A stretch of 24,000 bases of DNA from Clostridia bacterium (GCA_045646385.1 JAZRKQ010000016.1:96336-120335), one strand, 5' to 3'. Counted from the first letter of the stretch, positions 3,654-23,945 are shown. Notes: a model not told the origin generated them from the sequence alone. Translations and numbers: made by a program.

Positions 3654-3670
3654 ATTTAACGTAGTCTTTT

Positions 3671-3892: not shown

Positions 3893-3894
3893 TG

Positions 3895-3931: not shown

Positions 3932-3971
3932 TTTGTGTAGGTATTCAACTAAATTTTTTGTGTGCAAATAC

Positions 3972-4000: not shown

Positions 4001-4013
4001 TATGTAGAATAAA

Positions 4014-4280: not shown

Positions 4281-4308
4281 GCCTCATGATAAAGGAGAAA
4301 TTTTTAAT

Positions 4309-9185: not shown

Positions 9186-10376
9186 ATGGATTTTAAGTCA
9201 CCCAAAATGATTAATGTATATAAAATTATTATTATGATTATGTCTACGGCAGTCTTGCTGTTTCTTTTTGCAGTTTGCGCAATAATCATTTCTTTTGGCA
9301 ACGTTCATGCAAATTTTTATAATACAATGCTTTTGATTGCTGTTGGAATTATTTTAGGTGCACTGGGATGTACTTTGTGGAAAGTAATTACAAATAAATT
9401 TGTGTATATACCGCTTTGTACAATGGTTGGTTTGTGGCTTATTATATTGCTTGCTTTTTCTGGATATTATAGTTATTTTGACTCTATCCCTACTGTTGGT
9501 GAAAGTGATAATATTTGGTGGGATTATTCTCCGTTTTCTAAACACGGAAAAGTTGCAACACTAAATGAAGAATCTACACTTAAACTAACAGATAATATAC
9601 CGCGCCTTGACGGTGCTACTGCTTTATACCCAATATATTCTGCGTTTGTAAAGGCGGTTTATCCTTTGCCAACGGATAATGCTAAACCTACAGATGGATA
9701 TATAAATTGCTCTACAACTGCCGGTGCGTATAAAAATATAGTTGATGGGAATGCAGATATAATATTTGTTGGCGCACCCTCTAAAAAACAAGAAGAGTAT
9801 GCCCAGTCCAAAGGTGTAAAGCTTATATATACACCAATTGGAAAAGAAGCATTTGTTTTCTTTGTAAACAGCGAAAATCCAATTTCTGATATTACGGTTG
9901 AACAGATACAGGAAATATATTCCGGTAAAATTGATAATTGGGGTGCGTTGGGCATTGATGGTTTAGGAGAAATACGTGCTTTTCAGCGAGAAGAGGGAAG
10001 TGGTAGCCAAAGTGCACTTGTACGCCTTATGGAAGGCAGAGAACTTATTGCTCCTCCAAAAGAAGATGTTATAGAAGGAATGGGCGGTATAATTAAGAAA
10101 ACTGCAGACTACAGAAACTATAAAAATGCCTTGGGTTATTCTTTTAGATTTTATTCTACCGAGATGGTTAAAAACAATCAAATTAAATTATTGAGTGTTG
10201 ACGGAATTGAACCCACATTAGAAAATATAGAAAACGGCAATTATCCGATTGCATCTCACTTTTATGCGGTTACACGGGCAGAAAGAGATACTAATACCGA
10301 AAAATTAATTAATTGGATTCTTGGTAAACAAGGTCAGGAACTGATTGAAAAAACAGGGTACGCTCCTCTTAACTAA
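9186..10376 (+). CDS. Membrane-anchored PstS-like (PBP_like_2) substrate-binding protein
   Basis: The first ~100 aa form about four hydrophobic helices. The remainder resembles phosphate-binding PstS-family domains (LDGATALYP, IIFVGAPS, VEQIQEIYSGKIDNWGALG, REEGSGSQSA). ATG at 9186 follows AGGTG. Confidence 0.7.
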   Translation: MDFKSPKMINVYKIIIMIMSTAVLLFLFAVCAIIISFGNVHANFYNTMLLIAVGIILGALGCTLWKVITNKFVYIPLCTMVGLWLIILLAFSGYYSYFDSIPTVGESDNIWWDYSPFSKHGKVATLNEESTLKLTDNIPRLDGATALYPIYSAFVKAVYPLPTDNAKPTDGYINCSTTAGAYKNIVDGNADIIFVGAPSKKQEEYAQSKGVKLIYTPIGKEAFVFFVNSENPISDITVEQIQEIYSGKIDNWGALGIDGLGEIRAFQREEGSGSQSALVRLMEGRELIAPPKEDVIEGMGGIIKKTADYRNYKNALGYSFRFYSTEMVKNNQIKLLSVDGIEPTLENIENGNYPIASHFYAVTRAERDTNTEKLINWILGKQGQELIEKTGYAPLN

Positions 10377-10463
10377 CCTGTAGTATGATTTGTTTATAAT
10401 ACACAACTGAGAATATTTCTCGAAAAAAAATAAATGTAAATATTACAAAAAACGCATAAATGC

Positions 10464-10492
10464 TTGACAAAACGATATGTATATGATATCAT
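10464..10492 (+). promoter_or_regulatory. Sigma-A promoter (extended -10) upstream of the small ORF and the long operon
   Basis: TTGACA (10464-10469), a 17-nt spacer, then TATCAT (10487-10492) with TG at 10484-10485. Confidence 0.6.
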
Positions 10493-10522
10493 AAATGTAT
10501 ATTTTTGAAAGGGGATGTACGT

Positions 10523-10804
10523 ATGTCGAATTTTGTTAAACATTTTGCTAATATGTTTACCAAAGATGCGTCTGTAAGTGCGTGTTCCTCTTGTGGTGCA
10601 GTTAATACTGCTACCAATTTTAATTTTATTAAATTTGCAGACACTGTTTTTTCAGTGTCTGTTTTGTTATGTTCTTTAATTTCCATTATTGGTTTTGCTT
10701 TGCTTGGTCTAATTTATGTGATTATACTGGCAAACATTATAATTATTAACATTATATGTCTGAAAAAAATATTCTATAAAAAGCGAAACATTATTAAATT
10801 CTAA
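10523..10804 (+). CDS. Hypothetical small membrane protein (93 aa)
   Basis: ATG at 10523 follows GAAAGGGGA. The N-terminal half is soluble and carries a CSSCG motif. The C-terminal half is hydrophobic and very Ile-rich. No family was recognised. Confidence 0.45.
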   Translation: MSNFVKHFANMFTKDASVSACSSCGAVNTATNFNFIKFADTVFSVSVLLCSLISIIGFALLGLIYVIILANIIIINIICLKKIFYKKRNIIKF

Positions 10805-10833
10805 TTTTTCGATATAAACAATCCAAGTTTAAG

Positions 10834-10868
10834 ACGGTTTTGCTTTTTATAGGCGGAGCCGTTTTTTA
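10834..10868 (+). terminator. Rho-independent terminator/attenuator-like hairpin directly upstream of the operon
   Basis: ACGGTTTTGC (10834-10843) pairs with GCGGAGCCGT (10853-10862). The stem is 10 bp including 3 G-U pairs, the loop is 9 nt, and a T6 run follows. It ends 29 nt before the next start codon. Confidence 0.55.
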
Positions 10869-10896
10869 ATAAAAGAGGAAAAGAGGAGAAAATTGT

Positions 10897-12312
10897 ATGA
10901 CAGAAATCAAAATTGCCGACATTACTTTAAGAGAAAAATCTTTTTGTGAGGTTGATGCTCTAAGTTTTAAAGAAAAAACAGAGATTGCCAAACAACTGGA
11001 TAATCTAAAAGTTGATATAATTGAAACAGCGCCAATCACAAGTGGCAAAAAAGATATTCTGTTCTTACACACAATTTCTTCAATTGTAAAAAACAGTATA
11101 ATTTCTTGCCCGACAGGTCTTTCTGAGGAATCTGTTTTAGAGGCTTATGATGCTATTAAAAATTCTGTTAAGTCAAGACTTAATATTATTGTTCCTGTTT
11201 CAACTGTGCAAATGGAATATATATGCCACAAAAAGCCTGATAAAGTTCTTGATATGATTGCAAATCTTACCAAATACGCAAGTTCGCTTTGTAAAGATGT
11301 TGAAGTGTCATTGGCAGACAGCACCAGAGCTGAAAGTGAATTTTTATATAAAGCGATTTCTGCTGCTATAGGAAATGGAGCAAAGGTCATTACCTTGTGT
11401 GATTCTGCCGGAATTATGATGCCGTCTGAATTTGAACAGTACATAAATACTATTTATGATAATGTTCCTGAACTTAAAGAAGTGGCTCTTTCAGTTGAGT
11501 GCTCAAACGAAATGAACATGGCTACCGCATGTGCTATTGCCTGCATTAATGCCGGTGCTACACAAATAAAGGTTGCCACAGGCTCAAATTCATGCCCATC
11601 ACTTAAATCTACTGCTAATGTATTCAGAATTAAATCTGATGTTTTAAAAATTTCTACTTTAATGAATATGACGGTTCTGGATAAAGCGGTTGCCCGTATT
11701 TCTTCTATTGCTGATGGCAATATTGGTAATGCAACTGTGTATAATACTGAAGAACATAAAAACTATTTTGAAGATACAAAATTCAGTGCTGATGACGATA
11801 TTAAAACTATTGAAAAAGCGCTTGTAACTATGGGATATGAATTACCTGCAGAAGAACTTAAAAATGTATATGACGAGTTTTCAAAAATCGCTGTAAAAAA
11901 ATCTGTTGGTATTAAAGAACTTGACGCAATTGTTGCAAGTACTGCTATGCAAGTTGCACCTACATATAAAGTTAAAAGTTATGTTATTAACAGCGGTAAC
12001 ATTTTAACGCCTACTGCTAATATAGAACTTACTAAAAGTGGTGATGTACTTCACGGTTTTTCTATAGGTGATGGCCCGATTGATGCTGCGTTTATGGCTA
12101 TAGAGCAGATTACAGGTCACCATTACGAACTTGATGATTTCCAGATACAATCTGTAACTCGCGGACGAGAGGCAATGGCAGAGAGTATTGTAAAACTCAG
12201 AAATGATGGTAGACTTTATTCCGGAAAAGGCACGTCTACAGATATTGTAGGCGCAAGCATTAATGCCTATATCAACGCATTGAATAAAATTTGCTTTGAG
12301 GAGGAGATATAA
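10897..12312 (+). CDS. LeuA/2-isopropylmalate-synthase-like protein with degenerate catalytic motifs and an intact LeuA_dimer regulatory domain
   Basis: The HMGL-like TIM-barrel N-terminal half aligns with LeuA (EKTEIAKQLDNLKVDIIE). The N-terminal DTTLRDGEQ motif reads DITLREKSF, and the HxH metal motif reads ECSNE (nt 11497-11511). The C-terminal GDGPIDAAFMAIE...DIVGASINAYINALNK is well conserved. Confidence 0.8.
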   Translation: MTEIKIADITLREKSFCEVDALSFKEKTEIAKQLDNLKVDIIETAPITSGKKDILFLHTISSIVKNSIISCPTGLSEESVLEAYDAIKNSVKSRLNIIVPVSTVQMEYICHKKPDKVLDMIANLTKYASSLCKDVEVSLADSTRAESEFLYKAISAAIGNGAKVITLCDSAGIMMPSEFEQYINTIYDNVPELKEVALSVECSNEMNMATACAIACINAGATQIKVATGSNSCPSLKSTANVFRIKSDVLKISTLMNMTVLDKAVARISSIADGNIGNATVYNTEEHKNYFEDTKFSADDDIKTIEKALVTMGYELPAEELKNVYDEFSKIAVKKSVGIKELDAIVASTAMQVAPTYKVKSYVINSGNILTPTANIELTKSGDVLHGFSIGDGPIDAAFMAIEQITGHHYELDDFQIQSVTRGREAMAESIVKLRNDGRLYSGKGTSTDIVGASINAYINALNKICFEEEI

Positions 12313-14768
12313 TGAATTTATCTTTTTCTACCAATAAATGGACAGATTTTAAAATTAGTGATTTCATTAAAATTGCTGCTGAATACAAATTTAACGGTAT
12401 AGAAATTCATGATGTTAATGAAATCAACGAGGAAAGTCTTTCCGATACTTATCACTCGCTTATTGAACATGGTATAAAAATACCGTGTATAGATATGGTG
12501 AACGATGTTTCAATTGATTCTTCAGAACTTTATAATGAATTTGAAAGGTTAAAAGAAGTAGTTGCTAAACTGCGAATCCCTTATATAAGATTGAAATCAA
12601 GCGGAGATGCAGCGGAATTTATAAAAAAAGTTTTGCCTTATGCAAAAGAAAATGGAATTACTTTGCTTGTTGAAACAGTGGGGGAATATGCAGATACTTC
12701 AAAACTCCGTACTTTGCTTGAAAGTTTTGCAGACGATAACCTTGCTGCATTGTGGGATTTTCATTATCCTTACCGTGTTAACGGCGAAGCGCCTGAAGAC
12801 ACTATCAGAAATCTTGGGGCATATGTTAAGCATATCCATATAAAAGACTCTGAAAGTTTAGCAGAGCATAGCCTGATAGGCGAGGGCAGTCTTCCTGTTG
12901 ATGAATTTATTAATGCATTAAGAAGTATAAATTTTAACGGATTTGTTTCGATAGAATGGAATCCTGACTGGGTATCAGAGGTTGATGATATAGACATTAT
13001 TTTCCCGCACTTTGTAAGTTTTATGTCAAGATATAAAGATCCTTCAAGAGCGAAAAAAGTTCTTTATGACAATAAAACAAAAACAGGCAAGTTTGTATGG
13101 AAAAAAGATGCATTGGTTGAAAAGACATTTTCACAAGTCCTTGATACTATGGCGGAGCAGTTTCCTGACCAGTACGCAATAAAATACACAACGCTTGATT
13201 ATACAAGAACATATTCGCAATTTCGTGATGATGTTGATAACTTTGCTAAAAGTTTGCTTGCTTTGGGTGTAAAAAAAGGAAGTCACGTTGCTGTTTGGGC
13301 AACAAATGTTCCTCAATGGTATATTGCATTCTGGGCAACAACAAAAATTGGTGCTGTTTTAGTTACAGTAAATACCGCGTATAAAATCCATGAAGCAGAG
13401 TATCTACTCAGACAGTCAGACACACACACACTGATTTTGATTGAAGGATACAGAGATTCAAATTACTCACAGATTATTGCAGAACTCTGTCCTGAACTTG
13501 AAACTAAAGAAGCAGATGCGCCATTACATGCTAAGAGATTACCTTTCCTTAGAAATGTAATTACCGTCGGATATAAGCAAAAGGGTTGCCTTACATGGGA
13601 AGCTGCACTTTCCAAAGGTGAAAAAGTACATATTGATGAAGTTAAGCGTGCTGCCGCCGCTGTTGATGTTCATGATGTATGTAATATGCAGTATACATCA
13701 GGTACTACAGGTTTTCCAAAGGGTGTAATGCTTACACATTATAATATTGTAAATGATGGTAAATGTATTGGCGATAGAATGGACCTTTCAACTGCCGACC
13801 GAATGATGATTCAAGTTCCTATGTTACATTGCTTCGGAATGGTGTTGGCGATGACGGCTTCTATGACGCATGGCGCTACAATTTTCCCGTTGCCATACTT
13901 TACTCCAAAGCCTGCGTTAGCTTGTATAAATCAGGAACATATTACAGCGTTTCACGGTGTTCCTACAATGTTTATTGCAATGCTTGAACATCCTGATTTT
14001 GAAAAAACCGATTTCAGTCATATGAGAACTGGTATTATGGCTGGCTCTCCTTGTCCTGAGCCTGTTATGAATCAGGTTATAGAGCAGATGAATATGCGTG
14101 AAATTACAATTGTGTATGGTCAGACAGAGGCTTCACCCGGTTGTACAATGAGTTCTACTGATGATTCTGTTGAAGTTCGTGTTTCTACTGTAGGCAGAGC
14201 GCTTCCTGAAATCGAATGCCGAATTGTAGATCCTGAAACAAACGAGGAACTTCCTGATAATACTATCGGCGAATTTGTTGCCAGAGGATATAATATTATG
14301 AAAGGGTATTACAAAATGCCCGAAGCAACGGCTGCTGCTATTGATAGTGACGGTTGGCTACATACAGGTGATTTGGCCCTCAAAACTCCCGAAGGAAACT
14401 ATCGAATTACAGGCCGTTTAAAAGATATGATTATTCGCGGAGGAGAAAATATTTATCCTAAAGAAATTGAAGAATTTATTTACACGCATCCCAAAGTTAG
14501 CGATGTTCAGGTAATTGGTGTTCCTGATGAACAGTATGGCGAGGAAATTATGGCTTGTATTATTCCTAAAGAGGGAGAGACCATTACCATTGATGAAATG
14601 AAAGAATATATTCTTTCACATATGGCTAAGCACAAAGTGCCTAAATACATTGATTTTGTTGATGCTTTCCCGACAAATGCTGCGGGAAAAATCCTCAAAT
14701 ATAAAATGCGTGAAGATGCTGTCGAAAGACTTAAAATTAAAAAAGTTGACGGCATTGTAGCAGAATAA
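12312..14768 (+). CDS. Fusion protein: xylose-isomerase-like TIM barrel (sugar-phosphate isomerase/epimerase family) and AMP-forming acyl-CoA ligase (FadD/ACSF2-like)
   Basis: The ATG overlaps the upstream stop (TAATG). Aa 1-240 resemble the AP_endonuc_2/XylA-like TIM barrel (LLVETVG, HIHIKD, VSIEWN). Aa ~266-818 carry the ligase motifs YTSGTTGFPKG, YGQTEASP, WLHTGD, GRLKDMIIRGGENIYPKEIE and AGKILK. Confidence 0.85.
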   Translation: MNLSFSTNKWTDFKISDFIKIAAEYKFNGIEIHDVNEINEESLSDTYHSLIEHGIKIPCIDMVNDVSIDSSELYNEFERLKEVVAKLRIPYIRLKSSGDAAEFIKKVLPYAKENGITLLVETVGEYADTSKLRTLLESFADDNLAALWDFHYPYRVNGEAPEDTIRNLGAYVKHIHIKDSESLAEHSLIGEGSLPVDEFINALRSINFNGFVSIEWNPDWVSEVDDIDIIFPHFVSFMSRYKDPSRAKKVLYDNKTKTGKFVWKKDALVEKTFSQVLDTMAEQFPDQYAIKYTTLDYTRTYSQFRDDVDNFAKSLLALGVKKGSHVAVWATNVPQWYIAFWATTKIGAVLVTVNTAYKIHEAEYLLRQSDTHTLILIEGYRDSNYSQIIAELCPELETKEADAPLHAKRLPFLRNVITVGYKQKGCLTWEAALSKGEKVHIDEVKRAAAAVDVHDVCNMQYTSGTTGFPKGVMLTHYNIVNDGKCIGDRMDLSTADRMMIQVPMLHCFGMVLAMTASMTHGATIFPLPYFTPKPALACINQEHITAFHGVPTMFIAMLEHPDFEKTDFSHMRTGIMAGSPCPEPVMNQVIEQMNMREITIVYGQTEASPGCTMSSTDDSVEVRVSTVGRALPEIECRIVDPETNEELPDNTIGEFVARGYNIMKGYYKMPEATAAAIDSDGWLHTGDLALKTPEGNYRITGRLKDMIIRGGENIYPKEIEEFIYTHPKVSDVQVIGVPDEQYGEEIMACIIPKEGETITIDEMKEYILSHMAKHKVPKYIDFVDAFPTNAAGKILKYKMREDAVERLKIKKVDGIVAE

Positions 14769-14780
14769 GGAGATATAAAA

Positions 14781-15839
14781 ATGGATATTAAAATTACAAA
14801 AACAACTGCATCAAAAGCAATTCCTACAGAAAATTTGGGATTTGGCAAAAGTTTTACTGACCATATGTTTATTGCTGATTACTCAAGAGATAAAGGTTGG
14901 TATAATGCCAGAATCGTTCCGTTTGCAAATTTGAGTATGCATCCTGCGGCAACCGTTTTTCATTACGGTGCTGAAATTTTCGAAGGATTAAAGGCATACA
15001 GAAGAGCAGATGGTAAAGTTCAACTTTTCAGACCTATTGAAAATGTAAGAAGAATGAACAATTCTGCTGAACGTTTAAGACTTCCTCAAATGCCGGAAGA
15101 AGATATGCTTCAGGCAATTATGGAACTTGTTAAAGTTGAAGAAGCATGGGTGCCTCATAACGAGGGTGAATCTCTTTACATTCGTCCATTCCTTTTTGGT
15201 AATGACGAACATTTAGGCGTTCATTCAATCGTGAACGCAACATTTGTAATCATTTGCTCACCAAGCGGAAGTTATTATGCTGAAGGTATAAATCCCGTTA
15301 AAATTATGATTGAAGAAGACGATGTAAGGGCTGTTCGTGGCGGTACTGGATTTGCTAAATGCGGTGGTAACTATGCTGCGGCTAACCGTGCCGGTGAAAA
15401 AGCAGAGCAGTTAGGCTATACACAGGTTCTTTGGCTCGATGGTGTTGAAAGAAAGTACATAGAAGAAGTAGGCGCTATGAATGTAATGTTTAAAATTGAT
15501 GGTGAAATTGTAACTCCCGCACTTACTGGTTCAATTCTTCCGGGTATAACGAGAAAATCATGTATCGAAGTATTAAAGAACGAGGGATATACAGTTTCTG
15601 AAAGACTTCTCTCTATTGATGAACTGACAGATGCAATGGAAAATGGCAAGTTAGAAGAGGCTTGGGGTTGCGGAACCGCTGCTGTTGTATCACCTATTGG
15701 ACAGTTGTTCTATAAAGGTAAAACTTATACTATCAACAATAACGAAATTGGTACTGTTACTCAGAATCTTTATAATAAACTTACCGGTATTCAGTGGGGT
15801 AAAGTTGAGGATACATTCGGATGGACAGTAGAGATTTAA
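14781..15839 (+). CDS. ilvE: Branched-chain amino acid aminotransferase
   Basis: 352 aa. Class IV BCAT hallmarks: FGKSFTDHMF, HYGAEIFEGLKAYR, FRP.ENV.RMN.SA.RL.LP and the PLP lysine context GTGFAKCGGNYAA. An AAGGAG RBS is present. Confidence 0.9.
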   Translation: MDIKITKTTASKAIPTENLGFGKSFTDHMFIADYSRDKGWYNARIVPFANLSMHPAATVFHYGAEIFEGLKAYRRADGKVQLFRPIENVRRMNNSAERLRLPQMPEEDMLQAIMELVKVEEAWVPHNEGESLYIRPFLFGNDEHLGVHSIVNATFVIICSPSGSYYAEGINPVKIMIEEDDVRAVRGGTGFAKCGGNYAAANRAGEKAEQLGYTQVLWLDGVERKYIEEVGAMNVMFKIDGEIVTPALTGSILPGITRKSCIEVLKNEGYTVSERLLSIDELTDAMENGKLEEAWGCGTAAVVSPIGQLFYKGKTYTINNNEIGTVTQNLYNKLTGIQWGKVEDTFGWTVEI

Positions 15840-16501
15840 AACGTGTTACCATTTTCGCAGGGCATTACGGAAGCGGAAAAACAAATATTGCCGTAAATTA
15901 TGCTTTAAGTATTTCTGCCTCTGGAAAACCTGTTGCTATTGCAGATTTGGATATTGTAAATCCGTATTTCAGGACGAAAGATTCTGAAAAAATATTATCA
16001 GCAAATAATATACGTCTTATATCTTCACCATATGCTAATACAAATGTTGATACCCCTGCATTACCGGCAGAGGCATATTCTGTAATACATGATAAAAATG
16101 TATATTCGGTAATAGATGTTGGTGGTGATGACAGAGGTGCATTGGCTCTTGGCAGATATATGCCTGCAATACGCGAACAAAACAATTACGAAATGATATT
16201 TGTTATAAACAAATACAGATATCTTACATCTACCCCCGAAGAAACTGTTCAAATAATGCGTGAGATTGAAATTGCTGCAGGTGCAAAATTTACATCTATT
16301 GTTAACAATTCAAATCTTGGAGAAGAAACTACTGTCGATGACGTGATTTCTTCTGTAAAATACGCTGAAAAAGTTGCTGAAATAACAGGGTTGAAAATTA
16401 AAATGACCACTGTTAAATCTGATTTAATTTCTAAATTGAATAACAAGATAGACAATCTTTTCCCGATTGAACTTTATGTAAGGCAATCGTGGCTAAAATA
16501 A
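15821..16501 (+). CDS. SIMIBI-like P-loop NTPase of unknown role
   Basis: Deviant Walker A GHYGSGKT, followed by ADLDIVNPYF and a Walker-B-like VIDVGGDD. The ATG lies 9 nt after GAGGA and overlaps the ilvE 3' end by 19 nt. Confidence 0.65.
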   Translation: MDSRDLKRVTIFAGHYGSGKTNIAVNYALSISASGKPVAIADLDIVNPYFRTKDSEKILSANNIRLISSPYANTNVDTPALPAEAYSVIHDKNVYSVIDVGGDDRGALALGRYMPAIREQNNYEMIFVINKYRYLTSTPEETVQIMREIEIAAGAKFTSIVNNSNLGEETTVDDVISSVKYAEKVAEITGLKIKMTTVKSDLISKLNNKIDNLFPIELYVRQSWLK

Positions 16502-16514
16502 GGAGGAAAAATAA

Positions 16515-16718
16515 ATGGCTAAAGTTACTTTTGACGAAAGCATTTGCAAAGGCTGCGGACTTTGCGTAGGTGCTTGTCCCAAAAAAATTGTTGCTTTGAA
16601 AGATGAACTGAATGCCAAAGGATATCATCCTGCCGGCGTTACCGATATGGAAAGTTGCATTGGTTGTGCGTTCTGCGCTACAATGTGTCCCGATTGTGTA
16701 ATTACAGTTGAAAAATAA
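16515..16718 (+). CDS. 2-oxoacid:ferredoxin oxidoreductase delta subunit (2x[4Fe-4S] ferredoxin)
   Basis: 67 aa with two CxxCxxCxxxCP motifs (CKGCGLCVGACP, CIGCAFCATMCP). AAGGAGG RBS. It lies immediately upstream of the alpha/beta/gamma subunits. Confidence 0.85.
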   Translation: MAKVTFDESICKGCGLCVGACPKKIVALKDELNAKGYHPAGVTDMESCIGCAFCATMCPDCVITVEK

Positions 16719-16731
16719 GGAGGAGAGAATT

Positions 16732-17802
16732 TTGAGCGAAAAAGTATTGATGAAAGGCAATGAAGCAATGGCAGAAGCCGCTATCATGGCCGGATGTAAA
16801 CATTATTTCGGATACCCCATTACTCCTCAGACAGAGGTTGCTGCATACATGGCAAAAAGACTTCCTAAAGTAGATGGTGGTGTATTCTTACAGGCAGAGA
16901 GCGAAATTGCTGCAATTAATATGGTAATTGGTGTTGCCGCTACAGGAAAAAGAGTTATGACCTCTTCTTCAAGTCCAGGTATTTCTTTAAAGAGTGAAGG
17001 TATTTCTTACCTTGCTGGTTGCGACTTACCTGCACTTATTGTAAACGTACAGCGTGGTGGTCCCGGTCTTGGCGGTATTCAGCCTTCACAGTCTGATTAT
17101 TTTCAGGCTACCAAGGGTGGGGGACACGGTGATTTTCATTTAATCGTTGTTGCACCTTCTTCTGTTCAGGAAATGGTTGATTTAACATCTAAATGTTTTG
17201 ATTTGGCAGATAAATACAGAATGCCTGCAATGATTCTTGCAGACGGCACTATGGGTCAGATGATGGAACCTGTTTCTTTAGAAGCAGCAGATGTTAAATC
17301 CGTTGATAAACCTTGGGCACTTACAGGTACTAAATGTGAACGTGAGCCAAATATTGTTAACTCACTTTTCTTAAAGCCTGATGAATTGGAGCAGTTTAAC
17401 ATTGAAAGATTCAAACGCTACAAAGAGATTGAAGCAAACGAAGTTATGTATGAAGAATATATGATGGATGATGCTGAAATTTGTATTGTTGCTTTTGGTG
17501 TTGCAGCAAGAGTATCTCAGAATGCTATTGATGAAGCACGCAAAAAAGGTATTAAAGTTGGTATGATAAGACCTATTACATTGTGGCCTTTCCCGAAAGA
17601 TGTTCTTAATAAGGCGGCAGATAAAGTAAAAGCATTTATTTCTGTTGAACTTAATATGGGACAGATGCTTGAAGATATTGAACTTGCTACACGCTGCAAA
17701 AAACCTGTACTTCTTTGCAGCAGAACAGGCGGTATGATTCACACAACTGAAAACATTCTTGATTCTATAGAAGAAGCACAGAAAATCGGAGGTGATAAAT
17801 AA
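16732..17802 (+). CDS. 2-oxoacid:ferredoxin oxidoreductase alpha subunit
   Basis: The N-terminus KGNEAMAEAAIMAGCKHYFGYPITPQTE is typical of Kor/Vor/Por alpha subunits. TTG at 16732, 6 nt after AAGGAGGAG, is preferred over the ORF-track start at 16708. ATG at 16750 is an alternative. Confidence 0.85.
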   Translation: MSEKVLMKGNEAMAEAAIMAGCKHYFGYPITPQTEVAAYMAKRLPKVDGGVFLQAESEIAAINMVIGVAATGKRVMTSSSSPGISLKSEGISYLAGCDLPALIVNVQRGGPGLGGIQPSQSDYFQATKGGGHGDFHLIVVAPSSVQEMVDLTSKCFDLADKYRMPAMILADGTMGQMMEPVSLEAADVKSVDKPWALTGTKCEREPNIVNSLFLKPDELEQFNIERFKRYKEIEANEVMYEEYMMDDAEICIVAFGVAARVSQNAIDEARKKGIKVGMIRPITLWPFPKDVLNKAADKVKAFISVELNMGQMLEDIELATRCKKPVLLCSRTGGMIHTTENILDSIEEAQKIGGDK

Positions 17803-18554
17803 TGGTAGTATTTGAAAAACCTAAAGCACTTACAGAAAACACTTTGCATTATTGTCCCGGTTGTACACATGGTATTATTCATCGTTTAGTTGCAGAAGCA
17901 ATTGATGAATTAGGTATTAGAGGAAGAACAATCGGTGTTGCATCTGTTGGATGCTCAGTATTTACATATAATTACTTTAATGTTGATATGGTTCAGGCAG
18001 CACACGGCAGAGCGCCTGCTGTTGCTACCGGTGTTAAACGCTCAGATAGTAATAACATTGTATTTACATATCAGGGCGATGGCGATTTGGCTGCTATTGG
18101 CACTGCTGAAACAGTTCACTCTGCTGCAAGAGGCGAAAATATTACCGTTATTTTTGTAAATAATGCAATTTACGGTATGACTGGCGGTCAGATGGCTCCG
18201 ACAACTCTGCCCGGACAGGTAACACAGACTTCGCCGTACGGAAGAGATGTCGACAAAGTTGGTTACCCCATTAAAGTTTGTGAAATGCTTTCTAAGGTTG
18301 ACGGTGCTACTTATCTTGAAAGAGTTGCTGTCAATAATGTTAAAAATATTAAAAAAGCAAAAGAAGCAATTAAAAAGGCTTTCCAGAATCAGATTGAAGG
18401 CAAAGGATTTTCTTTAGTAGAAGTACTTTCTACTTGTCCTACAAACTGGGGTAAAACTCCTGAAGATTCTCTTAAATGGCTTGAAAGCGAAATGATGCCT
18501 TACTATCCATTGGGAGTTTACAAGGACAAATACGCAGACGGGGAGGCAAAATAA
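17802..18554 (+). CDS. 2-oxoacid:ferredoxin oxidoreductase beta subunit (TPP-binding)
   Basis: YCPGCTHG cysteine motif and GDGD...NN TPP-binding region. The start overlaps the alpha-subunit stop (TAATG). Confidence 0.9.
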   Translation: MVVFEKPKALTENTLHYCPGCTHGIIHRLVAEAIDELGIRGRTIGVASVGCSVFTYNYFNVDMVQAAHGRAPAVATGVKRSDSNNIVFTYQGDGDLAAIGTAETVHSAARGENITVIFVNNAIYGMTGGQMAPTTLPGQVTQTSPYGRDVDKVGYPIKVCEMLSKVDGATYLERVAVNNVKNIKKAKEAIKKAFQNQIEGKGFSLVEVLSTCPTNWGKTPEDSLKWLESEMMPYYPLGVYKDKYADGEAK

Positions 18555-19084
18555 TGAGTAAACAGATGTTAATTGCCGGATTTGGCGGACAGGGAGTTCT
18601 TTTCGCAGGAAAATTTATTGCTTATGCAGGACTCATTGAAGAAAAAGAAGTTAGTTGGTTGCCATCTTACGGTCCGGAAATGCGTGGAGGTACCGCAAAC
18701 TGCAGCGTAATTTTGAGCGATACCAAAGTAGGTTCCCCAATCGTTGATAAACCTGATATTTTAGTTGCTTTAAACGCACCGTCACTTGATAAATATGAAA
18801 ATGATGTTGTTTCAGGAGGTCATATTTTTGTTGATAGTTCTCTCATTGACAGAAAGGTTAACCGTACTGATGTAAATGTGCACTATATTCCTGCATCTAA
18901 AATGGCGTCGGACGAAAATTTAAGTGGCCTTGCAAATATGATTATGATGGGACATATGATTAAACATAGCGATGTAATTGAATATGATAGCATTGAAAAA
19001 TCTATGGCCAAAGTAGTTTCTGCAAAAAAACAAAATCTTTTTGATGCTAATAAAAAGGCTGTGGAACTGGGATATAACTATTAA
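18554..19084 (+). CDS. 2-oxoacid:ferredoxin oxidoreductase gamma subunit
   Basis: N-terminal [10 protein letters not shown] motif and SYGPEMRGG, typical of gamma subunits. The start overlaps the beta-subunit stop (TAATG). Confidence 0.9.
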
Positions 19085-19098
19085 GGAGGGGACGCCTT

Positions 19099-19650
19099 GT
19101 GAATAACCAGATTAAAGATATCGGTATGCGTCTGGCTTTTTTGCGCGAAGATATGGAACTTACTACTGCACAAATGGCAGAGAAATTAGATGTTGATGAG
19201 GCAACATATATTTCTTATGAAAAAGGCGAGATGGATTTTTCATTTAGTTTTATTTATAATGCTGCTGATCATCTTGGTGTTGATGTTCTGGATTTAATCA
19301 GCGGTGATGCTCCTACACTTTCTATGTGTACAATGGTTGAAAAAGGGAATGGATATTCAGTTAAAAGAGAGCATGAGTATGATTATAAGCATCTTGCTTA
19401 CACCTTCAGAAATAAAAAGGCTGAACCATTTCTTGTAACAATAACCCCTGACGAAAAACCGCCTGTTATGAAATGTCATGAAGGACAGGAATTTAACTAC
19501 GTGCTTTCCGGAAAGATGAAATTCTTTATAGGAGATATTTCATATGAACTTTCCAAAGGTGATAGCGTTTATTTTGATTCCGGAATACCTCACGCGGAAG
19601 TTGCCCTTGGTGATAAACAGGCTCAGTTTATCGCCGTAGTAATTAAATAA
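19099..19650 (+). CDS. XRE-family HTH transcriptional regulator with C-terminal cupin domain
   Basis: 183 aa. It aligns over its whole length with aa ~20-203 of the fusion at 4309-6600 (MAEK...FIY.A...L.V.V.D.I; KHLAY.F.N..AEPF; GDSVYFDSGIPH). GTG start lies 7 nt after AAGGAGGGG. Confidence 0.85.
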   Translation: MNNQIKDIGMRLAFLREDMELTTAQMAEKLDVDEATYISYEKGEMDFSFSFIYNAADHLGVDVLDLISGDAPTLSMCTMVEKGNGYSVKREHEYDYKHLAYTFRNKKAEPFLVTITPDEKPPVMKCHEGQEFNYVLSGKMKFFIGDISYELSKGDSVYFDSGIPHAEVALGDKQAQFIAVVIK

Positions 19651-19665
19651 CTTTCGGAGGCTTGA

Positions 19666-21363
19666 TTGAAAATGGCAATATATGAAAAATTTGTTGGCGC
19701 ATCAAGAGATGATTTTATCTCTCTTGAAGACGCACAACGAAATTATAACCTTACATATGAAGAAGATTTTAACTTTGCATATGATGTCATTGATGAACTT
19801 GGTACTACCAAGCCCGACAAATTGGCATTATTGTATTTATCTTCTTCAGGTGAAGAAAAACGCTTTACATTCCGTGATATGATGCTTATGTCTAATAAGG
19901 CTGCGAATTATTTTAAGTATATGGGAATCAAAAAAGGCGATAGAGTTTTGCTGGTTATGAAGCGTAGTTATTATTTCTGGATTTGTGTTTTAGCACTTCA
20001 CAAAATTGGTGCTATTATGATTCAAGCAACAAATATGCTTAAGGCTAAGGATTATGTTTATCGTTGTAATGCTGCCAAAATCAATGCTGTAATTTTAACC
20101 GGCGATGGTATGGAAACTGAATATTTTGATGAGGGCGGTGACCAATACGAGACCGTTACAAAAAAATTTGTATTAGGTCATAAAAAGGCAGGACATGATT
20201 GGATAGATTTTGAAACGGGCTTTGAAATGGCAAGTGATCAATGGGAAAAGCCCCGCGGTAAAGATAAACCTATGGCTGACGATACTATGCTTATGGCCTT
20301 TTCATCTGGTACTACCGGTTATCCCAAAATTATTTCTCATAACTTCAAATATCCATTAGGGCATATTATGACTGGTGTATTTTGGCATAGAGTTGTAGAT
20401 GGTGGTTTGCATTTTACAATTTCTGATACCGGATGGCTTAAATCTCTTTGGGGTAAATTCTACGGTCAATGGTTTGGTGAATCTGCAATTTTGGTATATG
20501 ATTTTGAAAAGTTTGATGGTGCTGATATACTTTCTAAACTTGAAAAATATAAAGTTACTACTTTCTGTGTTCCGCCTACCATGTATCGCATGATGTTGCA
20601 AAACGATGTTAGTAAATATGATTTATCATCACTTACTCATTGCTGTTCTGCAGGTGAAGCATTAAACCCTGAGATCTTCAATAAGTGGCTCGATGCTACA
20701 GGTTTAAAAATTTATGAGGGTTTTGGACAGACAGAAACCGCTGTTTGTATTGCTACTATTGAACCTTGGACAGAACCTATCCCCGGTACAATGGGATTCC
20801 CCGTTCCCGGTTTTGATGTTCATATTCTCGATGAAAATAACAAATTCGTACAACGTGGTACAACCGGCGAAATATGCATACGTGTACTTAGCGCAAAACG
20901 TAAATCGTGTGGCCTTTTAGACAGTTACAACTTAAATAGCGAGGAAACAAAAAAGGCCATGTACGGTGGATTTTATCATACCGGTGATACTGCTTACCGT
21001 GATGAAAAAGGAATGTTTAGATATGTGGGTAGAAATGACGATGTAATTAAGTCATCTGGTTACCGCATTGGTCCTTTTGAGATTGAAAGTGTTATGTTGG
21101 AACATCCTGCAGTTATGGAAGTTGCAGTCACTGGTGTTCCTGATCCGGTTCGTGGGTTTGCAGTTAAGGCAACGGTGGTTCTTAGCGATGATTATGAGGG
21201 CAGTGATGAACTTACCAAGGAACTTCAATCATACGTTAAAACTAATACTGCTCCCTATAAATATCCAAGAATTGTGGAATATGTTAAAGAACTTCCAAAA
21301 ACTTTTAATGGCAAAATCCGCAGAGCAGAAATCCGTAATAAAGATAATGAACCCAAATTATAA
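19666..21363 (+). CDS. AMP-forming (ACSM/MACS-type) acyl-CoA synthetase
   Basis: Motifs FSSGTTGYPK, GFGQTET, YHTGD, GRNDDVIKSSGYRIGPFEIE and NGKIRR. It is a paralog of the ligase part of 4309-6600, with roughly half the residues identical by eye. The start is TTG at 19666 or ATG at 19672, after GGAGG. Confidence 0.9.
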   Translation: MKMAIYEKFVGASRDDFISLEDAQRNYNLTYEEDFNFAYDVIDELGTTKPDKLALLYLSSSGEEKRFTFRDMMLMSNKAANYFKYMGIKKGDRVLLVMKRSYYFWICVLALHKIGAIMIQATNMLKAKDYVYRCNAAKINAVILTGDGMETEYFDEGGDQYETVTKKFVLGHKKAGHDWIDFETGFEMASDQWEKPRGKDKPMADDTMLMAFSSGTTGYPKIISHNFKYPLGHIMTGVFWHRVVDGGLHFTISDTGWLKSLWGKFYGQWFGESAILVYDFEKFDGADILSKLEKYKVTTFCVPPTMYRMMLQNDVSKYDLSSLTHCCSAGEALNPEIFNKWLDATGLKIYEGFGQTETAVCIATIEPWTEPIPGTMGFPVPGFDVHILDENNKFVQRGTTGEICIRVLSAKRKSCGLLDSYNLNSEETKKAMYGGFYHTGDTAYRDEKGMFRYVGRNDDVIKSSGYRIGPFEIESVMLEHPAVMEVAVTGVPDPVRGFAVKATVVLSDDYEGSDELTKELQSYVKTNTAPYKYPRIVEYVKELPKTFNGKIRRAEIRNKDNEPKL

Positions 21364-21382
21364 GAAGGTGTAATTTAATTAA

Positions 21383-22249
21383 ATGACAGATGTAAAAATA
21401 ACTGATGTGCGTGTTCATCCCGGTGATAGCGGTTTCTTAGTTGATGATGGCGAAACATCAATACTATATGATTCAGGTTTTGCTTTTACCGGAAGCGGAA
21501 TGGTTAATAAAATCAAAGAACAACTTGGAAACAGAAAATTAGATTACATATTCCTTACACATTCTCATTACGATCATGTGCTTGGCGCTCTTTATGCAAT
21601 GAGGCAATGGCCTGATGCAAAAGTAATTGCAGGTGAATATGCTGCAAAGATTTTTTGCAAACCATCTGCAAAATCTGTTATGCGTAAACTTGACCAAAAG
21701 TTTGCAACTACCTGTGGAGCAGAACCGTATGAAGATATAATTGACGAACTCAGAGTTGACATTACCGTCAACGATGGTGATATTATAAATGCCGGAAAAA
21801 TGACATATAAAGTTGTTGATTTACCGGGACACACTAAATGTTCTGTTGGTTTTTATCTTGTTGGGAAAAAACTTTTACTAAGTACCGAAACTCTCGGTAT
21901 ATATGCCGGAAACGAAATTATATTGCCATCATTTTTAGTGGGTTATGAGATGACACTTAACTCTATTAAAAAAGTGGAAAATATGGATGTTGAGAATATT
22001 TTGGTGCCGCATTACGGTTTGCTAGACAGAGAACACACAAAAGTGTTTTTGAAAAAAGCAAAAGAAGTTGCACATATAACTGCAGAAGATTTTTCTGCAA
22101 GGATAAAAAAAGGGCAGACAGATGAGGAATTAATAGAATATTTCAAATCATTATATTATCACGATTACATTAGGGTTATTTACCCTATAGATGCTATTGA
22201 ACTTAATACAAGTTGTATGATTAACTTAATAAAACGAGAGTGTTTATAA
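21383..22249 (+). CDS. MBL-fold metallo-hydrolase
   Basis: 288 aa with the canonical HSHYDH (HxHxDH) zinc motif, followed by GHT and a later His. GAAGGTG RBS. It is the last gene before the terminator. Confidence 0.85.
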   Translation: MTDVKITDVRVHPGDSGFLVDDGETSILYDSGFAFTGSGMVNKIKEQLGNRKLDYIFLTHSHYDHVLGALYAMRQWPDAKVIAGEYAAKIFCKPSAKSVMRKLDQKFATTCGAEPYEDIIDELRVDITVNDGDIINAGKMTYKVVDLPGHTKCSVGFYLVGKKLLLSTETLGIYAGNEIILPSFLVGYEMTLNSIKKVENMDVENILVPHYGLLDREHTKVFLKKAKEVAHITAEDFSARIKKGQTDEELIEYFKSLYYHDYIRVIYPIDAIELNTSCMINLIKRECL

Positions 22250-22252
22250 ATT

Positions 22253-22284
22253 AAAAAGCGTATTGCATAAGCAATACGCTTTTT
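22253..22284. terminator. Bidirectional rho-independent terminator
   Basis: GCGTATTGC (22258-22266), loop ATAA, GCAATACGC (22271-22279), flanked by A5 and T5. It lies between the convergent MBL-hydrolase and sigH genes. Confidence 0.85.
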
Positions 22285-22924
22285 AATTTTCAACATTTTT
22301 AGTTTGCAGATATTTTTCCACTTTCTTTTTAATCCGCTGCAGAGCGTTATCAATTGATTTTTCGCTTTTGTCAAGACGTTTAGCAATTTCACTATAACTT
22401 TTACCATCTAAAAAAAGATTCATTACCTTCCATTCAAATTTACTTAATACCTCTGACATTTTTGTAAGAATGGAAGAAAAATGCTCTTTTGTTATCATAA
22501 TCTCTTCAGGATTAAAATTTTCTTTCTCAGCAATCATATCAATCATCATACGTTCGGATTCTTCGTCATAAACAGATTTATTTAGAGATATATATGAATT
22601 TAAGGGAATATGTTTTTGTCTGGTGGCTGTTTTAATGGCGGTTATTATCTGACGTGTAATACATATTTCAGCAAATCCTCTGAATGATGCAGGTTTGGTT
22701 GTGTCATAATCACGTATGGCTTTATAAAGGCCTATCATACCTTCCTGAATGATATCCTCTTTATCGGCTCCGATTAAAAAATATGTTCTTGCACGTGACT
22801 TAACAAAATTTTTGTATTTATTAATAATATAATCAGTGGCAATACTGTCGCCTGATTTTGCTATTGCCACAATTTCTTCATCGCTTAATTTATTGTATTG
22901 CGAAGGTGTTTCTGGAAATGACAT
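22283..22924 (-). CDS. sigH: RNA polymerase sporulation sigma factor SigH
   Basis: 213 aa. YFLIGADKEDIIQEGMIGLYKAIRDY...FAEICITRQIITAIKTATRQKHIPLNSY is nearly identical to my recollection of B. subtilis Spo0H/SigH region 2. Confidence 0.9.
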   Translation of the reverse strand: MSFPETPSQYNKLSDEEIVAIAKSGDSIATDYIINKYKNFVKSRARTYFLIGADKEDIIQEGMIGLYKAIRDYDTTKPASFRGFAEICITRQIITAIKTATRQKHIPLNSYISLNKSVYDEESERMMIDMIAEKENFNPEEIMITKEHFSSILTKMSEVLSKFEWKVMNLFLDGKSYSEIAKRLDKSEKSIDNALQRIKKKVEKYLQTKNVEN

Positions 22925-23022: not shown

Positions 23023-23039
23023 TTATCGAGGTGGATACA

Positions 23040-23945
23040 ATGGACAAAATTAATATTAAAGAACTTTTAAATTACATATCTCCAAATCTGCGTGAATGCT
23101 TGTTGAATATAGATGCAAGATTGTGGGATAAAGCAGAAGAGATACGTATTTCACTTGGGAAACCTGCTATGTTATGTTATAACGACGGATTTGAATATAT
23201 ATATAAACAAGACGAGCCCTTTATTTGTGATGTGCGTACTGTTAAAGAAACAATGATGCTTATTACGGATAGTTCCATATATGCCGCAAACGAGAAAATG
23301 ATTAATGGCTATATAACCCTTAAAGGAGGACATAGAGCAGGAATATGTGGTTGCACTGTGATAAACGATGGGAAAATATCTGCAATAAAAGATATATCTT
23401 CTATAAACATCAGAATTAAAAGGGAAATTATTGGTGCCGCCGATAAAGTGATTAATTATATTTATAATAAAGAACACATACAAAACACACTCATAATATC
23501 GCCCCCGCAATGCGGAAAAACCACTTTGTTACGCGATATTGCCAGAATACTTGGAAGAAACCGAAGAGTATCGATTGTAGATGAAAGAAGTGAAATTGCT
23601 GCAATGTATAATGGTATAGCACAAAATGATATTGGGTTACGTACAAACGTTCTCGATAATTGTCCTAAACAAATAGGGATACCATTGGTTATTCGCAGTA
23701 TGTCACCGGAAGTTGTAATAACGGACGAAATTGGTGCGGATAGTGACGCAGATGTTATAAAATATGCAGCAACAAGTGGCGTAAAAATAATTACGTCTGC
23801 GCATGGCCTTGATATAAATGATATGATGCGCCAAAAATCACTTAAAAATATAATTGGTTTTTTTGATGTTTTTATTTCACTTACGAATATCGGCGGAACA
23901 GGAAGTGTTTCCAATATAATACGGAGGAAAGAACTTGATATTTAA
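23040..23945 (+). CDS. spoIIIAA: Stage III sporulation protein AA (ATPase)
   Basis: Walker A PPQCGKTTLLRD and Walker B VVITDEIG, with length and context typical of SpoIIIAA. ATG at 23040, 6 nt after GAGGTG, is preferred over GTG at 23031. Confidence 0.9.
   Translation: MDKINIKELLNYISPNLRECLLNIDARLWDKAEEIRISLGKPAMLCYNDGFEYIYKQDEPFICDVRTVKETMMLITDSSIYAANEKMINGYITLKGGHRAGICGCTVINDGKISAIKDISSINIRIKREIIGAADKVINYIYNKEHIQNTLIISPPQCGKTTLLRDIARILGRNRRVSIVDERSEIAAMYNGIAQNDIGLRTNVLDNCPKQIGIPLVIRSMSPEVVITDEIGADSDADVIKYAATSGVKIITSAHGLDINDMMRQKSLKNIIGFFDVFISLTNIGGTGSVSNIIRRKELDI

Follow-up and report, generated by a model that had tools for sequence, protein, structure and literature searches.

The DNA considered here, called the window throughout, is a stretch of 24,000 nucleotides (nt) from a Clostridia bacterium (GCA_045646385.1 JAZRKQ010000016.1:96336-120335). 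Its plus strand holds a block of eleven genes at positions 10897-22249 and, upstream of these, a further gene that stands behind a T-box leader. Together they encode three AMP-forming acyl-coenzyme A (CoA) ligases, a branched-chain aminotransferase, and a four-subunit 2-oxoacid:ferredoxin oxidoreductase (OFOR). These are the parts of a candidate system for converting branched short-chain acids (isoacids) into leucine, valine, and isoleucine. An initial annotation of the window had proposed such a system; here, the proposal is weighed against the structure of the locus and against related loci, which carry L numbers.

Gene content of the locus

The coordinates of the open reading frames (ORFs) agree with the annotation that the eleven genes are co-directional and separated by 19 nt or less, or overlap. 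In order, the junction gaps are -1, 12, -19, 13, 13, -1, -1, 14, 15, and 19 nt, a list that assumes that VorA starts with the TTG at 16732, as taken from the ortholog call in L001. The claim that no terminator lies inside the block also holds up; terminator-like sites between 4000 and 23900 number 13, while shuffled sequences lead one to expect 12.1 +/- 3.7. The block was further said to be bounded by two hairpins. Both do indeed fold strongly. The downstream one is a bidirectional terminator (22248-22289; -23.1 kcal/mol, z -8.2) that is common to the operon and to the convergent sigH ORF (22283-22924, minus strand). The upstream one, however, ends about 28 nt 5' of the first ATG, which leaves no space for a promoter; it is a piece of a conserved leader (see below), and probably not a simple boundary. 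This 5' boundary, the nature of the LeuA-like protein, and two ligase fusions are the points at which the annotation needed correction. Its domain content is otherwise as claimed, to judge from Pfam and NCBIfam.

The first gene (10897-12312, plus strand, as are all those of the block) encodes a LeuA-like protein, with an HMGL-like match (3e-38) at residues 4-226 and a LeuA_dimer domain (PF08502, 1.5e-31) at residues 340-465. This protein had been thought to retain only its regulatory domain. The barrel fold, however, is also present; it is the catalytic motifs that are gone. None of the 80 members of the family has LRDGEQ, HxH, NGxGERAGN, or SGIHQDG. Aligned with the isopropylmalate synthase (IPMS) of N. 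meningitidis (3RMJ), the window protein has DITLREKSF in place of DTTLRDGEQ, and ECSNE in place of HCHND, and the position of the metal-binding Asp varies within the family (E, M, V, N, I, or S). The best score against an IPMS equivalog is 300.4 bits, where the cut-off is 532, and the protein falls under every curated IPMS cut-off. The regulatory domain is its best-conserved part, with the motif GDGPxDA kept in 74 of the 80 members. All of this points to a pseudoenzyme with a conserved allosteric domain, and not to an IPMS.

The second gene (12312-14768) overlaps the first by 1 nt (TAATG), an arrangement called translational coupling. Its product is a fusion of 818 residues (Pfam AP_endonuc_2, AMP-binding, and AMP-binding_C), in which residues 1-260 form a xylose-isomerase-like TIM barrel and the remainder is an AMP-forming acyl-CoA ligase of the FadD3/PRK12583 type (697 bits against NF009233). 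This TIM::ligase fusion is called ligase A here. In the barrel, E121, D149, H174/H176, D179, and E215 occupy the positions expected for the E/D/H/E metal ligands, and 66 or more of the 68 sequences keep them; the metal site appears to be intact. A model of the domain (predicted local distance difference test score, pLDDT, of 91.8) has a ketose-3-epimerase-like fold, for which a fold search returned only generic matches to ketose 3-epimerases and isomerases at 15-22% identity. The homolog search found no stand-alone close homologs of the TIM domain, its matches being fragments of the same fusion; this TIM subfamily would seem to exist solely joined to the ligase.

IlvE, a branched-chain aminotransferase of class IV, follows (14781-15839), with scores above the curated cut-offs (NF009897, 478.5 bits against 307; TIGR01123, 399.9 against 250). 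Then comes a P-loop NTPase of 226 residues (15821-16501; Pfam CbiA, 8e-6). It is of the SIMIBI class (MinD/ParA/CbiA-like) and has no cysteines, and thus is not an Fe-S carrier; its model (pLDDT 82.8) gives only generic matches, to signal recognition particle GTPases and ATPase-type HypB, with template modeling (TM) scores of 0.5-0.6. The OFOR occupies 16515-19084. Its subunits are VorD (16515-16718; delta, Fer4_7, 2x[4Fe-4S]), VorA (16732-17802; alpha, POR_N and PFOR_II; 538 bits against NF005507, named "VorB," where the cut-off is 399), VorB (17802-18554; beta, with the thiamine pyrophosphate-binding TPP_enzyme_C domain), and VorG (18554-19084; gamma, POR). The last gene (21383-22249; Pfam Lactamase_B, 4e-22) encodes a hydrolase of the metallo-beta-lactamase (MBL) fold. 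Of the loci compared, L001, the closest relative, is the only other one to have it, and so it is not a core part of the system.

Between the OFOR and the MBL hydrolase lie an XRE-type helix-turn-helix (HTH) protein with a cupin domain (19099-19650; HTH_3 and Cupin_2) and a second ligase, ligase B (19666-21363; AMP-binding and AMP-binding_C), whose best NCBIfam match is MbcS. The T-box gene (4309-6600, plus strand) encodes both kinds of unit in a single chain of 763 residues, an HTH-cupin::ligase fusion (Pfam HTH_19/HTH_3, Cupin_2, AMP-binding, and AMP-binding_C). Ligase B is 51% identical to the ligase behind the T-box, and the HTH-cupin protein is 37% identical to the N-terminal part of the fusion (BLASTP 1e-41); the two operon proteins are evidently paralogs of the two halves of the fusion. 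Ligase B shares only 24% identity with ligase A. Ligase B and the T-box ligase each give a match over their own full length to MacsMa, the medium-chain acyl-CoA synthetase of Methanosarcina acetivorans (3ETC; E 9e-184 and 2e-186, respectively). Their scores against the MbcS family are 421 and 439 bits, far under the equivalog cut-off of 850, and they are therefore homologs of MbcS, not equivalogs.

Conservation of the gene neighborhood

Related loci came from two sources. A homolog search and a scan of GTDB species genomes gave 80 loci out of 556 confirmed matches, and the window proteins were mapped onto these loci by tblastn. Another 80 loci came from metagenomes scanned for relatives of the T-box ligase. 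All loci are from metagenome-assembled genomes (MAGs) from the gut of ruminants, other herbivores, or humans. Those from the species genomes represent Oscillospiraceae, Acutalibacteraceae, other Clostridia, Lentisphaerae (Victivallales), and Planctomycetes (Thermoguttaceae).

The genes for the LeuA-like protein and ligase A make up a core pair. They are immediate neighbors, in that order, in 79/79 loci with enough sequence, and the TIM::ligase fusion is found in all 79. Identity runs from 72 to 97% in the ligase domain, even between phyla, from 48 to 87% in the LeuA-like protein, and from 37 to 91% in the TIM domain.

The genes that accompany this pair were counted in 50 dereplicated loci with at least 9.5 kilobases (kb) downstream. 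IlvE is present in 28 of the 50, an MbcS-like ligase in 27, and an HTH-cupin domain was detected in 29. Wherever it occurs in the related loci, the HTH-cupin is either fused to an MbcS-like ligase or lies directly 5' of one. The four-subunit VOR is present in 25 loci, and in 9 its position is taken by a single fused oxidoreductase of 1168 residues, of the pyruvate:ferredoxin oxidoreductase (PFOR) type. An OFOR of one architecture or the other is therefore joined to the core pair in 34 loci. The exchange of one architecture for the other at this position speaks for a functional link of the ligases with an OFOR. The P-loop gene accompanies the four-subunit enzyme every time (25/25) and the fused enzyme never (0/9), a strict co-occurrence that suggests an accessory or maturation role for its product. 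The complete gene order of the window is kept in many Clostridia, while the order in Victivallales is LeuA-like, TIM::ligase A, fused PFOR, and HTH-cupin::ligase. When the neighborhood is examined across genomes, the order of ligase, IlvE, and OFOR is thus kept in about 50 of them at species level, with non-orthologous replacement of the OFOR.

A gene that is absent from the window also recurs beside the core pair. This encodes a protein of the Amidohydro_2 family (PF04909), and it is co-oriented with the pair and adjoins it in 24 of 83 loci, either just 5' of the LeuA-like gene or after ligase A or IlvE. Examples are at 9204-9989 in L002, 13904-14764 in L027, and 15062-15859 in L004.

T-box leaders and the assignment of ligases to amino acids

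T-box leaders read the charging state of a particular tRNA, and the specifier codon of such a leader names the amino acid whose shortage turns on the gene behind it. The T-box of the window (4009-4247, plus strand) scores 100.3 bits against RF00230, where the gathering score is 93, and is followed by an intrinsic terminator (4236-4279; a 12-base-pair (bp) hairpin and then U8, -17.1 kcal/mol, z -5.7). In stem I, the AGAGA/GA motif and the GGUG sequence of the distal loop are present, and a purine comes after the specifier codon. Ahead of its closing helix, the specifier loop has the sequence GUUUGUAG, and the cmscan alignment places the specifier immediately 5' of that 4-bp helix (GGAG/CUUC). 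Since the codon is the triplet just 5' of the last loop base, the specifier is GUA, for Val, and the base after it is G. The conserved T-box sequence AGUGGUACCGCG is also present, and its UGGU bulge fits the discriminator base A73 of tRNA-Val. The same GUA specifier is read in L001, in L039, and in most of the 80 metagenome relatives. A UGU (Cys) specifier was considered for the window and rejected; the UGGU bulge fits A73 and not the U73 of tRNA-Cys, and the ortholog in L019 reads GAA-GUA-G.

Specifiers were then surveyed in the window and 165 related loci with a rule taken from cmscan alignments, where the codon is followed by one base (R), the 4-nt helix, N, and GAGC. A reading was called helix-validated when the 4-bp helix was required to pair with its 5' partner. 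As a positive control, the rule reads AUG (Met) from a T-box in L073 (1300-1543, minus strand; 90.2 bits, just under the gathering score) that precedes the gene for a methionine ATP-binding cassette (ABC) transporter ATPase, MetN-like by its sequence.

The outcome separates the ligases by type. Among HTH-cupin::MbcS-like fusions, helix-validated readings give Val in 42 cases (28 GUA and 14 GUC, from 31 sequence clusters) and Ile in 8, all AUC (from 7 sequence clusters). By the looser rule, 13 further fusions read as Val; 5 remained unread, and 1 gave a spurious loose reading. In about 65 of the related loci, the gene behind a Val or an Ile T-box encodes this fusion. Leu T-boxes (CUC), on the other hand, lie directly 5' of the LeuA-like gene in all five cases (L035, L059, L073, L082, and L084), and in L073 the operon behind the Leu T-box continues into IlvE. 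The 165 loci offer no cross-assignment, that is, no Leu T-box on an MbcS-like ligase and no Val or Ile T-box on the pair of LeuA-like protein and ligase A. Five loci (L116, L117, L131, L138, and L150) have two genes for HTH-cupin::MbcS-like ligases in tandem, where an Ile (AUC) T-box precedes the first and a Val (GUA) T-box the second; in L117 these leaders are at 1482-1721 and about 4110-4340, and the Ile T-box is confirmed by cmscan. Control of the ligases by uncharged tRNA-Val, tRNA-Ile, or tRNA-Leu, specific to the type of ligase, is thus supported by the predicted leaders.

In a neighbor-joining tree, seven of the eight Ile-regulated ligases form one clade, sister to the Val-regulated ligases, while operon-type ligase B and the fusions from Lentisphaerae form separate clades. 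The HTH-cupin parts of Ile-regulated fusions are 41-50% identical to that of the window, and those of Val-regulated fusions 55-74% identical.

Characterized relatives suggest which acids are meant. MbcS from S. aureus has a Km below 10 uM for 2-methylbutyrate and isobutyrate, and above 500 uM for isovalerate (PMC10026030). The favored substrate of MacsMa is 2-methylbutyrate (PMC10455477). Val and Ile T-boxes therefore stand on members of a family known for the acids that correspond to Val and Ile, and known to reject the acid that corresponds to Leu. Isovalerate being so poor a substrate of MbcS, the leucine branch needs a ligase of another type. We propose that the T-box fusion is an isobutyrate-CoA ligase serving the valine branch, that ligase A is an isovalerate-CoA ligase serving the leucine branch, and, by elimination, that ligase B is a CoA ligase for 2-methylbutyrate (Ile), isobutyrate, or both. 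The suggestion that the three ligases handle different acids is consistent both with the ligase-specific T-boxes and with the substrate preferences of these relatives.

In two loci, a T-box is divergent from the LeuA-like operon (L036 1982-2229 and L049 1146-1385, both minus strand) and precedes yet another AMP-forming ligase, which is PRK06187-like and 24-29% identical to ligase A. The two readings of its specifier disagree, cmscan giving UAC (Tyr) and the motif rule ACG (Thr). This leader may extend the theme of acid to amino acid to another amino acid.

A candidate attenuator ahead of the operon

The eleven-gene operon has a leader of a different kind. The best candidate for its promoter is a sigma-70-like sequence at 10464-10492 (TTGACA-17-TATCAT with TG), which agrees with the consensus at 11 of 12 positions, recurs in L001 and L006, and is the probable start of the operon transcript. 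Between this and the first gene there is a small ORF of 93 codons (10523-10804), whose C-terminal half is rich in Ile and Leu (NIIIINII) and which could encode a leader peptide, a small membrane protein, or both. A terminator with its U-run follows (10831-10868; hairpin 10831-10865, -18.3 kcal/mol, z -5.2). The last codons of the small ORF (10774-10789) provide the 5' strand of a candidate antiterminator, which would form 16 bp with 10837-10852, a segment that includes the distal 5' arm and the loop of the terminator. When the leader is cut at 10853, before the 3' arm of the terminator, it folds into the antiterminator helix (-20.6 kcal/mol). At 10370-10910, Rfam families, T-box included, gave nothing meaningful at E up to 10.

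Both structures are conserved. The terminator hairpin, in which compensatory changes are seen (GC<->AU and UA<->CG), is kept in 12 loci, and the gene immediately behind it is in every case the first of the operon, be it LeuA-like or Amidohydro_2. A 12-bp core of the antiterminator is paired in 10/10 loci, and two of its pairs covary (GC<->UA; UG/CG/AU); this covariation score was reached by 1 of 500 shuffles, and every shift in register scores lower. The small ORF is conserved as well. Its orthologs, of 83-93 residues, take the same position in 10 loci, and in 9 of these 10 the ORF ends 21-38 nt past the start of an AAAAAGC motif in the antiterminator strand. There are 9-16 Ile among the last 45 residues, and runs of four Ile are found in six of the nine sequences examined, a strong enrichment over the background, where 456,232 residues hold 7 of them.

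Leader-peptide attenuators control ilv/leu operons in Proteobacteria. There, as would be the case here, the choice between terminator and antiterminator depends on a ribosome over an ORF rich in regulatory codons, here those for Ile. Ribosome-mediated attenuation is also the simplest reading of this leader. A ribosome that reached the stop codon of the small ORF would mask the antiterminator strand, and transcription would end. A ribosome stalled in the Ile/Leu-rich stretch would leave the antiterminator strand free, and the operon would be read through. Unlike those of Proteobacteria, the ORF of the window is long, at about 90 residues, has a conserved N-terminus, comes from Clostridia, and has no 1:2 pause hairpin that could be identified. 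That the leader is a ribosome-mediated attenuator is something we hold at nearly, but not quite, even chances. If it is, the operon of the window is under the same starvation logic that T-boxes provide elsewhere.

Acutalibacteraceae-type loci show another element. Here, a palindrome, ACTTATAGTGCATAAGT, follows a conserved promoter (TTGACT...TATATAATATAA), some 60-120 nt 5' of the first operon gene (L045, L050, L051, L058, L061, L066, L067, L071, L072, L074, and L080). It is perhaps an operator, with the HTH-cupin protein as the candidate to bind it. The palindrome does not occur in the window above chance.

From isoacids to amino acids: the proposed route and its alternatives

We consider it likely that the locus is an anabolic system for the assimilation of isoacids, converting branched short-chain acids to Leu, Val, and Ile. 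In this proposal, AMP-forming ligases would turn exogenous acids into their acyl-CoAs, with ligase A taking isovalerate, the T-box paralog taking isobutyrate, and ligase B taking 2-methylbutyrate or both of the latter two. The OFOR would then reductively carboxylate the acyl-CoAs to 2-oxoisocaproate, 2-oxoisovalerate, and 3-methyl-2-oxopentanoate, and IlvE would transaminate these to Leu, Val, and Ile. Carboxylation in this direction is unfavorable; the two ATP equivalents that the ligases spend would push it, and transamination would pull. Such a module of activation, reductive carboxylation, and transamination was the core of the initial annotation, and T-box specifiers, characterized relatives of the ligases, and gene order all speak for it. 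The genomic context of the OFOR, with its links to IlvE, ligases, and T-boxes, would suit an enzyme specific for branched 2-oxoacids and working in the carboxylating direction. The hosts, which live in the isoacid-rich gut and rumen, also count in favor of assimilation.

Regulation would operate at two levels. Expression would be coupled to shortage of the end products, by the Val T-box on the unlinked ligase and by the terminator/antiterminator leader on the operon. In addition, each ligase would have a protein partner that senses product. The LeuA-like protein is a putative leucine sensor for ligase A, and the HTH-cupin protein a putative sensor or regulator for ligase B, as the fused HTH-cupin would be for its own MbcS-like ligase. 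These roles are suggested by domain identity, by translational coupling, by obligate adjacency or fusion, and by the divergence of the HTH-cupin parts. It is tempting to go further, and to see in all of this an undescribed alternative regulon for the biosynthesis of branched-chain amino acids, in which every ligase has its own end-product sensor and in which RNA switches are specific for the amino acid. That regulon would comprise a leucine-sensing subunit derived from LeuA, a BirA-like association of HTH-cupin and ligase, T-boxes for Leu, Val, and Ile, and an attenuator based on runs of Ile. This larger construction is tentative, and we lean somewhat against it.

Several observations weigh against the assimilation proposal, or against parts of it. 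The substrate range of an OFOR is not readable from its sequence, and in 16 of the 50 loci the 10 kb around the core pair hold no OFOR. The metagenome T-boxes mostly fall under the Rfam gathering threshold (1 of about 6 passed in five loci), and their identification therefore rests on the conserved T-box sequence and the motif rule. A Leu T-box in front of a LeuA-like gene could, of course, descend from the leader of an ancestral leuA. The small ORF of the operon leader is long (about 90 residues) and hydrophobic, with a conserved N-terminus; its Ile-rich part could be no more than transmembrane helices, and its product a small membrane protein, whether besides or instead of a leader peptide. 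Last, a simple three-step pathway has no place for the TIM barrel with its intact metal site, for the Amidohydro_2 protein, or for the P-loop protein, and the leucine branch may therefore in reality proceed by a different chemistry.

This last point can be developed into an account of its own. The LeuA-like protein and the TIM::ligase, joined in some loci by Amidohydro_2, might carry out some other leucine-related chemistry in which isovalerate is not a substrate, with OFOR, IlvE, and MbcS-like ligases being a separate module that happens to be co-located. A complete metal site in 66/68 TIM sequences on a ketose-3-epimerase-like fold, a TIM subfamily that occurs solely as this fusion, Amidohydro_2 co-oriented and adjoining in 24 loci, and the 16/50 loci where the core has no OFOR nearby are all what one might expect of it. 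Yet the Leu T-boxes, the LeuA regulatory domain, and the linkage to IlvE and to two types of OFOR point to 2-oxoisocaproate and leucine, and no alternative substrate can be named. We regard this account as improbable. A better one, although still unlikely, makes the acyl-CoAs themselves the product, as branched primers for membrane fatty acids, with IlvE and VOR running oxidatively and the ligases salvaging isoacids. Every enzyme of the locus does converge on the acyl-CoA node, and for MbcS of S. aureus, a homolog of the MbcS-like ligases, this very role has been demonstrated, in that it feeds FabH for lipid synthesis (PMC10026030, PMC11167679). Further, it is established that label from isoacids enters lipids as well as amino acids in the rumen. 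Control by uncharged tRNA-Val, tRNA-Ile, or tRNA-Leu, however, is a hallmark of genes that raise the pool of the cognate amino acid, and here that control is amino-acid-specific for each ligase type. A LeuA regulatory domain and IlvE inside operons behind a Leu T-box (L073) fit feedback in an amino acid pathway, and no fab or FabH genes are linked. Lipid synthesis is, in any case, compatible with assimilation into amino acids, since the acyl-CoAs could go both ways.

The locus might instead be a catabolic operon for the fermentation of branched-chain amino acids, running from IlvE through VOR to acyl-CoA, where the ligases recycle CoA or act on unrelated acids. OFORs are, of course, reversible; IlvE and VOR also constitute the oxidative branch of Stickland fermentation; and the NCBIfam names say "dehydrogenase." Catabolism of this kind would nevertheless need a way to conserve ATP. 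The annotation had noted that ptb and buk are absent, and scans of the window proteins with Pfam and NCBIfam agree; they find in the window no phosphotransacylase or kinase of this kind, and no ADP-forming acyl-CoA synthetase. Three AMP-forming ligases oppose the release of acids, and it would be counterproductive for a catabolic pathway to be induced by starvation, which is what the T-boxes, and probably also the attenuator in the leader, would bring about. We therefore find catabolism very hard to credit, and return to assimilation in what follows.

Relation to known systems

The carboxylation chemistry itself is old knowledge. That leucine is made in the rumen by carboxylation of isovalerate is established (PMC7356843). 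Labeling studies of the 1960s-80s, cited in that paper, traced isovalerate, isobutyrate, and 2-methylbutyrate into Leu, Val, and Ile in anaerobes of the rumen and gut. The proposal for the window has the same chemistry of activation to the acyl-CoA, ferredoxin-dependent carboxylation to the 2-oxoacid, and transamination. The earlier work, however, delivered fluxes, whereas here a gene set, a specialization of ligases, and a mode of regulation are proposed. To our knowledge, pathway databases list the isoacid ligase step without a gene. The full-text literature searched yielded no description of this cluster. What appear to be new are the conserved gene set, amino-acid-specific T-box control of acyl-CoA ligases, the leader switch, the LeuA-derived pseudoenzyme with its TIM::ligase partner, and the HTH-cupin::ligase fusion.

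A similar design is known for other substrates. Methanogens convert aryl acids to aromatic amino acids by way of AMP-forming ligases and indolepyruvate:ferredoxin oxidoreductase. Activation, carboxylation by an OFOR, and transamination are common to both routes, and in L004 an IorAB-PaaK-ACT cluster adjoins the core pair. The substrates and the OFOR family are nevertheless different, and the methanogen route is not known to involve a T-box or a partner that is a pseudoenzyme. The cluster in question is found at 168-6096 (minus strand) in L004/L005. It consists of IorA and IorB (indolepyruvate:ferredoxin oxidoreductase), a PaaK-like ligase, an ACT-domain protein, and another AMP-ligase, and the operon that it adjoins holds LeuA-like, TIM::ligase, IlvE, and Amidohydro_2 genes and no VOR.

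For MbcS, we know of no T-box control, no fusion to or pairing with an HTH-cupin, and no linkage to OFOR or IlvE. Its selectivity for two alpha-branched acids nevertheless mirrors the assignment of Val and Ile T-boxes (PMC10026030, PMC11167679). MacsMa is the closest solved structure (3ETC) to ligase B and the T-box ligase, but it is an archaeal stand-alone enzyme, whose role PMC10455477 ties to no operon for branched-chain amino acids.

The regulatory proteins also have precedents. The LeuA-like protein resembles LeuA and CimA in having an HMGL-like barrel and an allosteric LeuA_dimer domain, and its C-terminal domain weakly matches the regulatory domain of CimA (3F6G); the LeuA-like family differs in its sub-cut-off scores and in lacking the catalytic and metal-binding motifs in 80/80 members. 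Two further likenesses are analogies only. HisZ (ATP-phosphoribosyltransferase) provides one, in that the LeuA-like protein, too, is proposed to be an inactive paralog that gives a first committed enzyme the ability to sense an end product. BirA provides the other, as an adenylate-forming enzyme joined to an HTH, much like the HTH-cupin::ligase. Neither is homologous to any protein of the window.

Isoacids are growth factors for the fiber-degrading bacteria of the rumen and are fed to dairy cattle, and yet the genes that assimilate them have been poorly defined so far. The loci described here suggest a set of markers, consisting of the LeuA-like protein with the TIM::ligase, MbcS-like ligases behind Val or Ile T-boxes, and a linked OFOR with IlvE. 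With these, models based on genomes would be able to predict dependence on isoacids and cross-feeding, false calls of auxotrophy for branched-chain amino acids in MAGs would be corrected, and strains and enzymes for feed and fermentation would be easier to pick. If the larger regulon outlined above is real, hundreds of gut and rumen species whose genomes make them seem auxotrophs for branched-chain amino acids would be prototrophs when given isoacids. The locus also offers two ideas about regulation, a biosynthetic enzyme recycled as an allosteric pseudoenzyme and a fusion of HTH-cupin and ligase, and it would extend the T-box regulon to acyl-CoA ligases.

Host and surrounding genes

Genes for SpoIVA (2027-3505, minus strand) on one side of the locus, and for SigH (the convergent ORF already mentioned) and SpoIIIAA (23031-23945, plus strand) on the other, mark the host as an endospore-forming Firmicute. 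It is an uncultured, spore-forming, Oscillospiraceae-like gut bacterium. The closest assembly among those compared is GCA_045589495.1, in which the operon proteins are 86-98% identical to those of the window.

Between the T-box ligase and the operon lies a gene for a DUF1846 protein (PRK13663; 6637-8118, minus strand), which has the same place in L001. At 318-1998 (plus strand) there are an ABC permease of the BPD_transp_2 family, which bears the label "branched-chain amino acid transport system permease," and an ATPase; the NCBIfam matches of the two are weak, and of the sugar or urea type only. Purine riboswitch aptamers are found a few kb 3' of the module in L036 (11688-11790) and L049 (10995-11097) and are probably unrelated to it. 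Just 5' of the T-box of the window are two tRNA-Ser genes (3670-3755 and 3804-3893), with anticodons UGA and GCU, and a comparable pair of tRNA genes, recognized by Rfam tRNA matches, lies upstream of the T-box ligase in L039.

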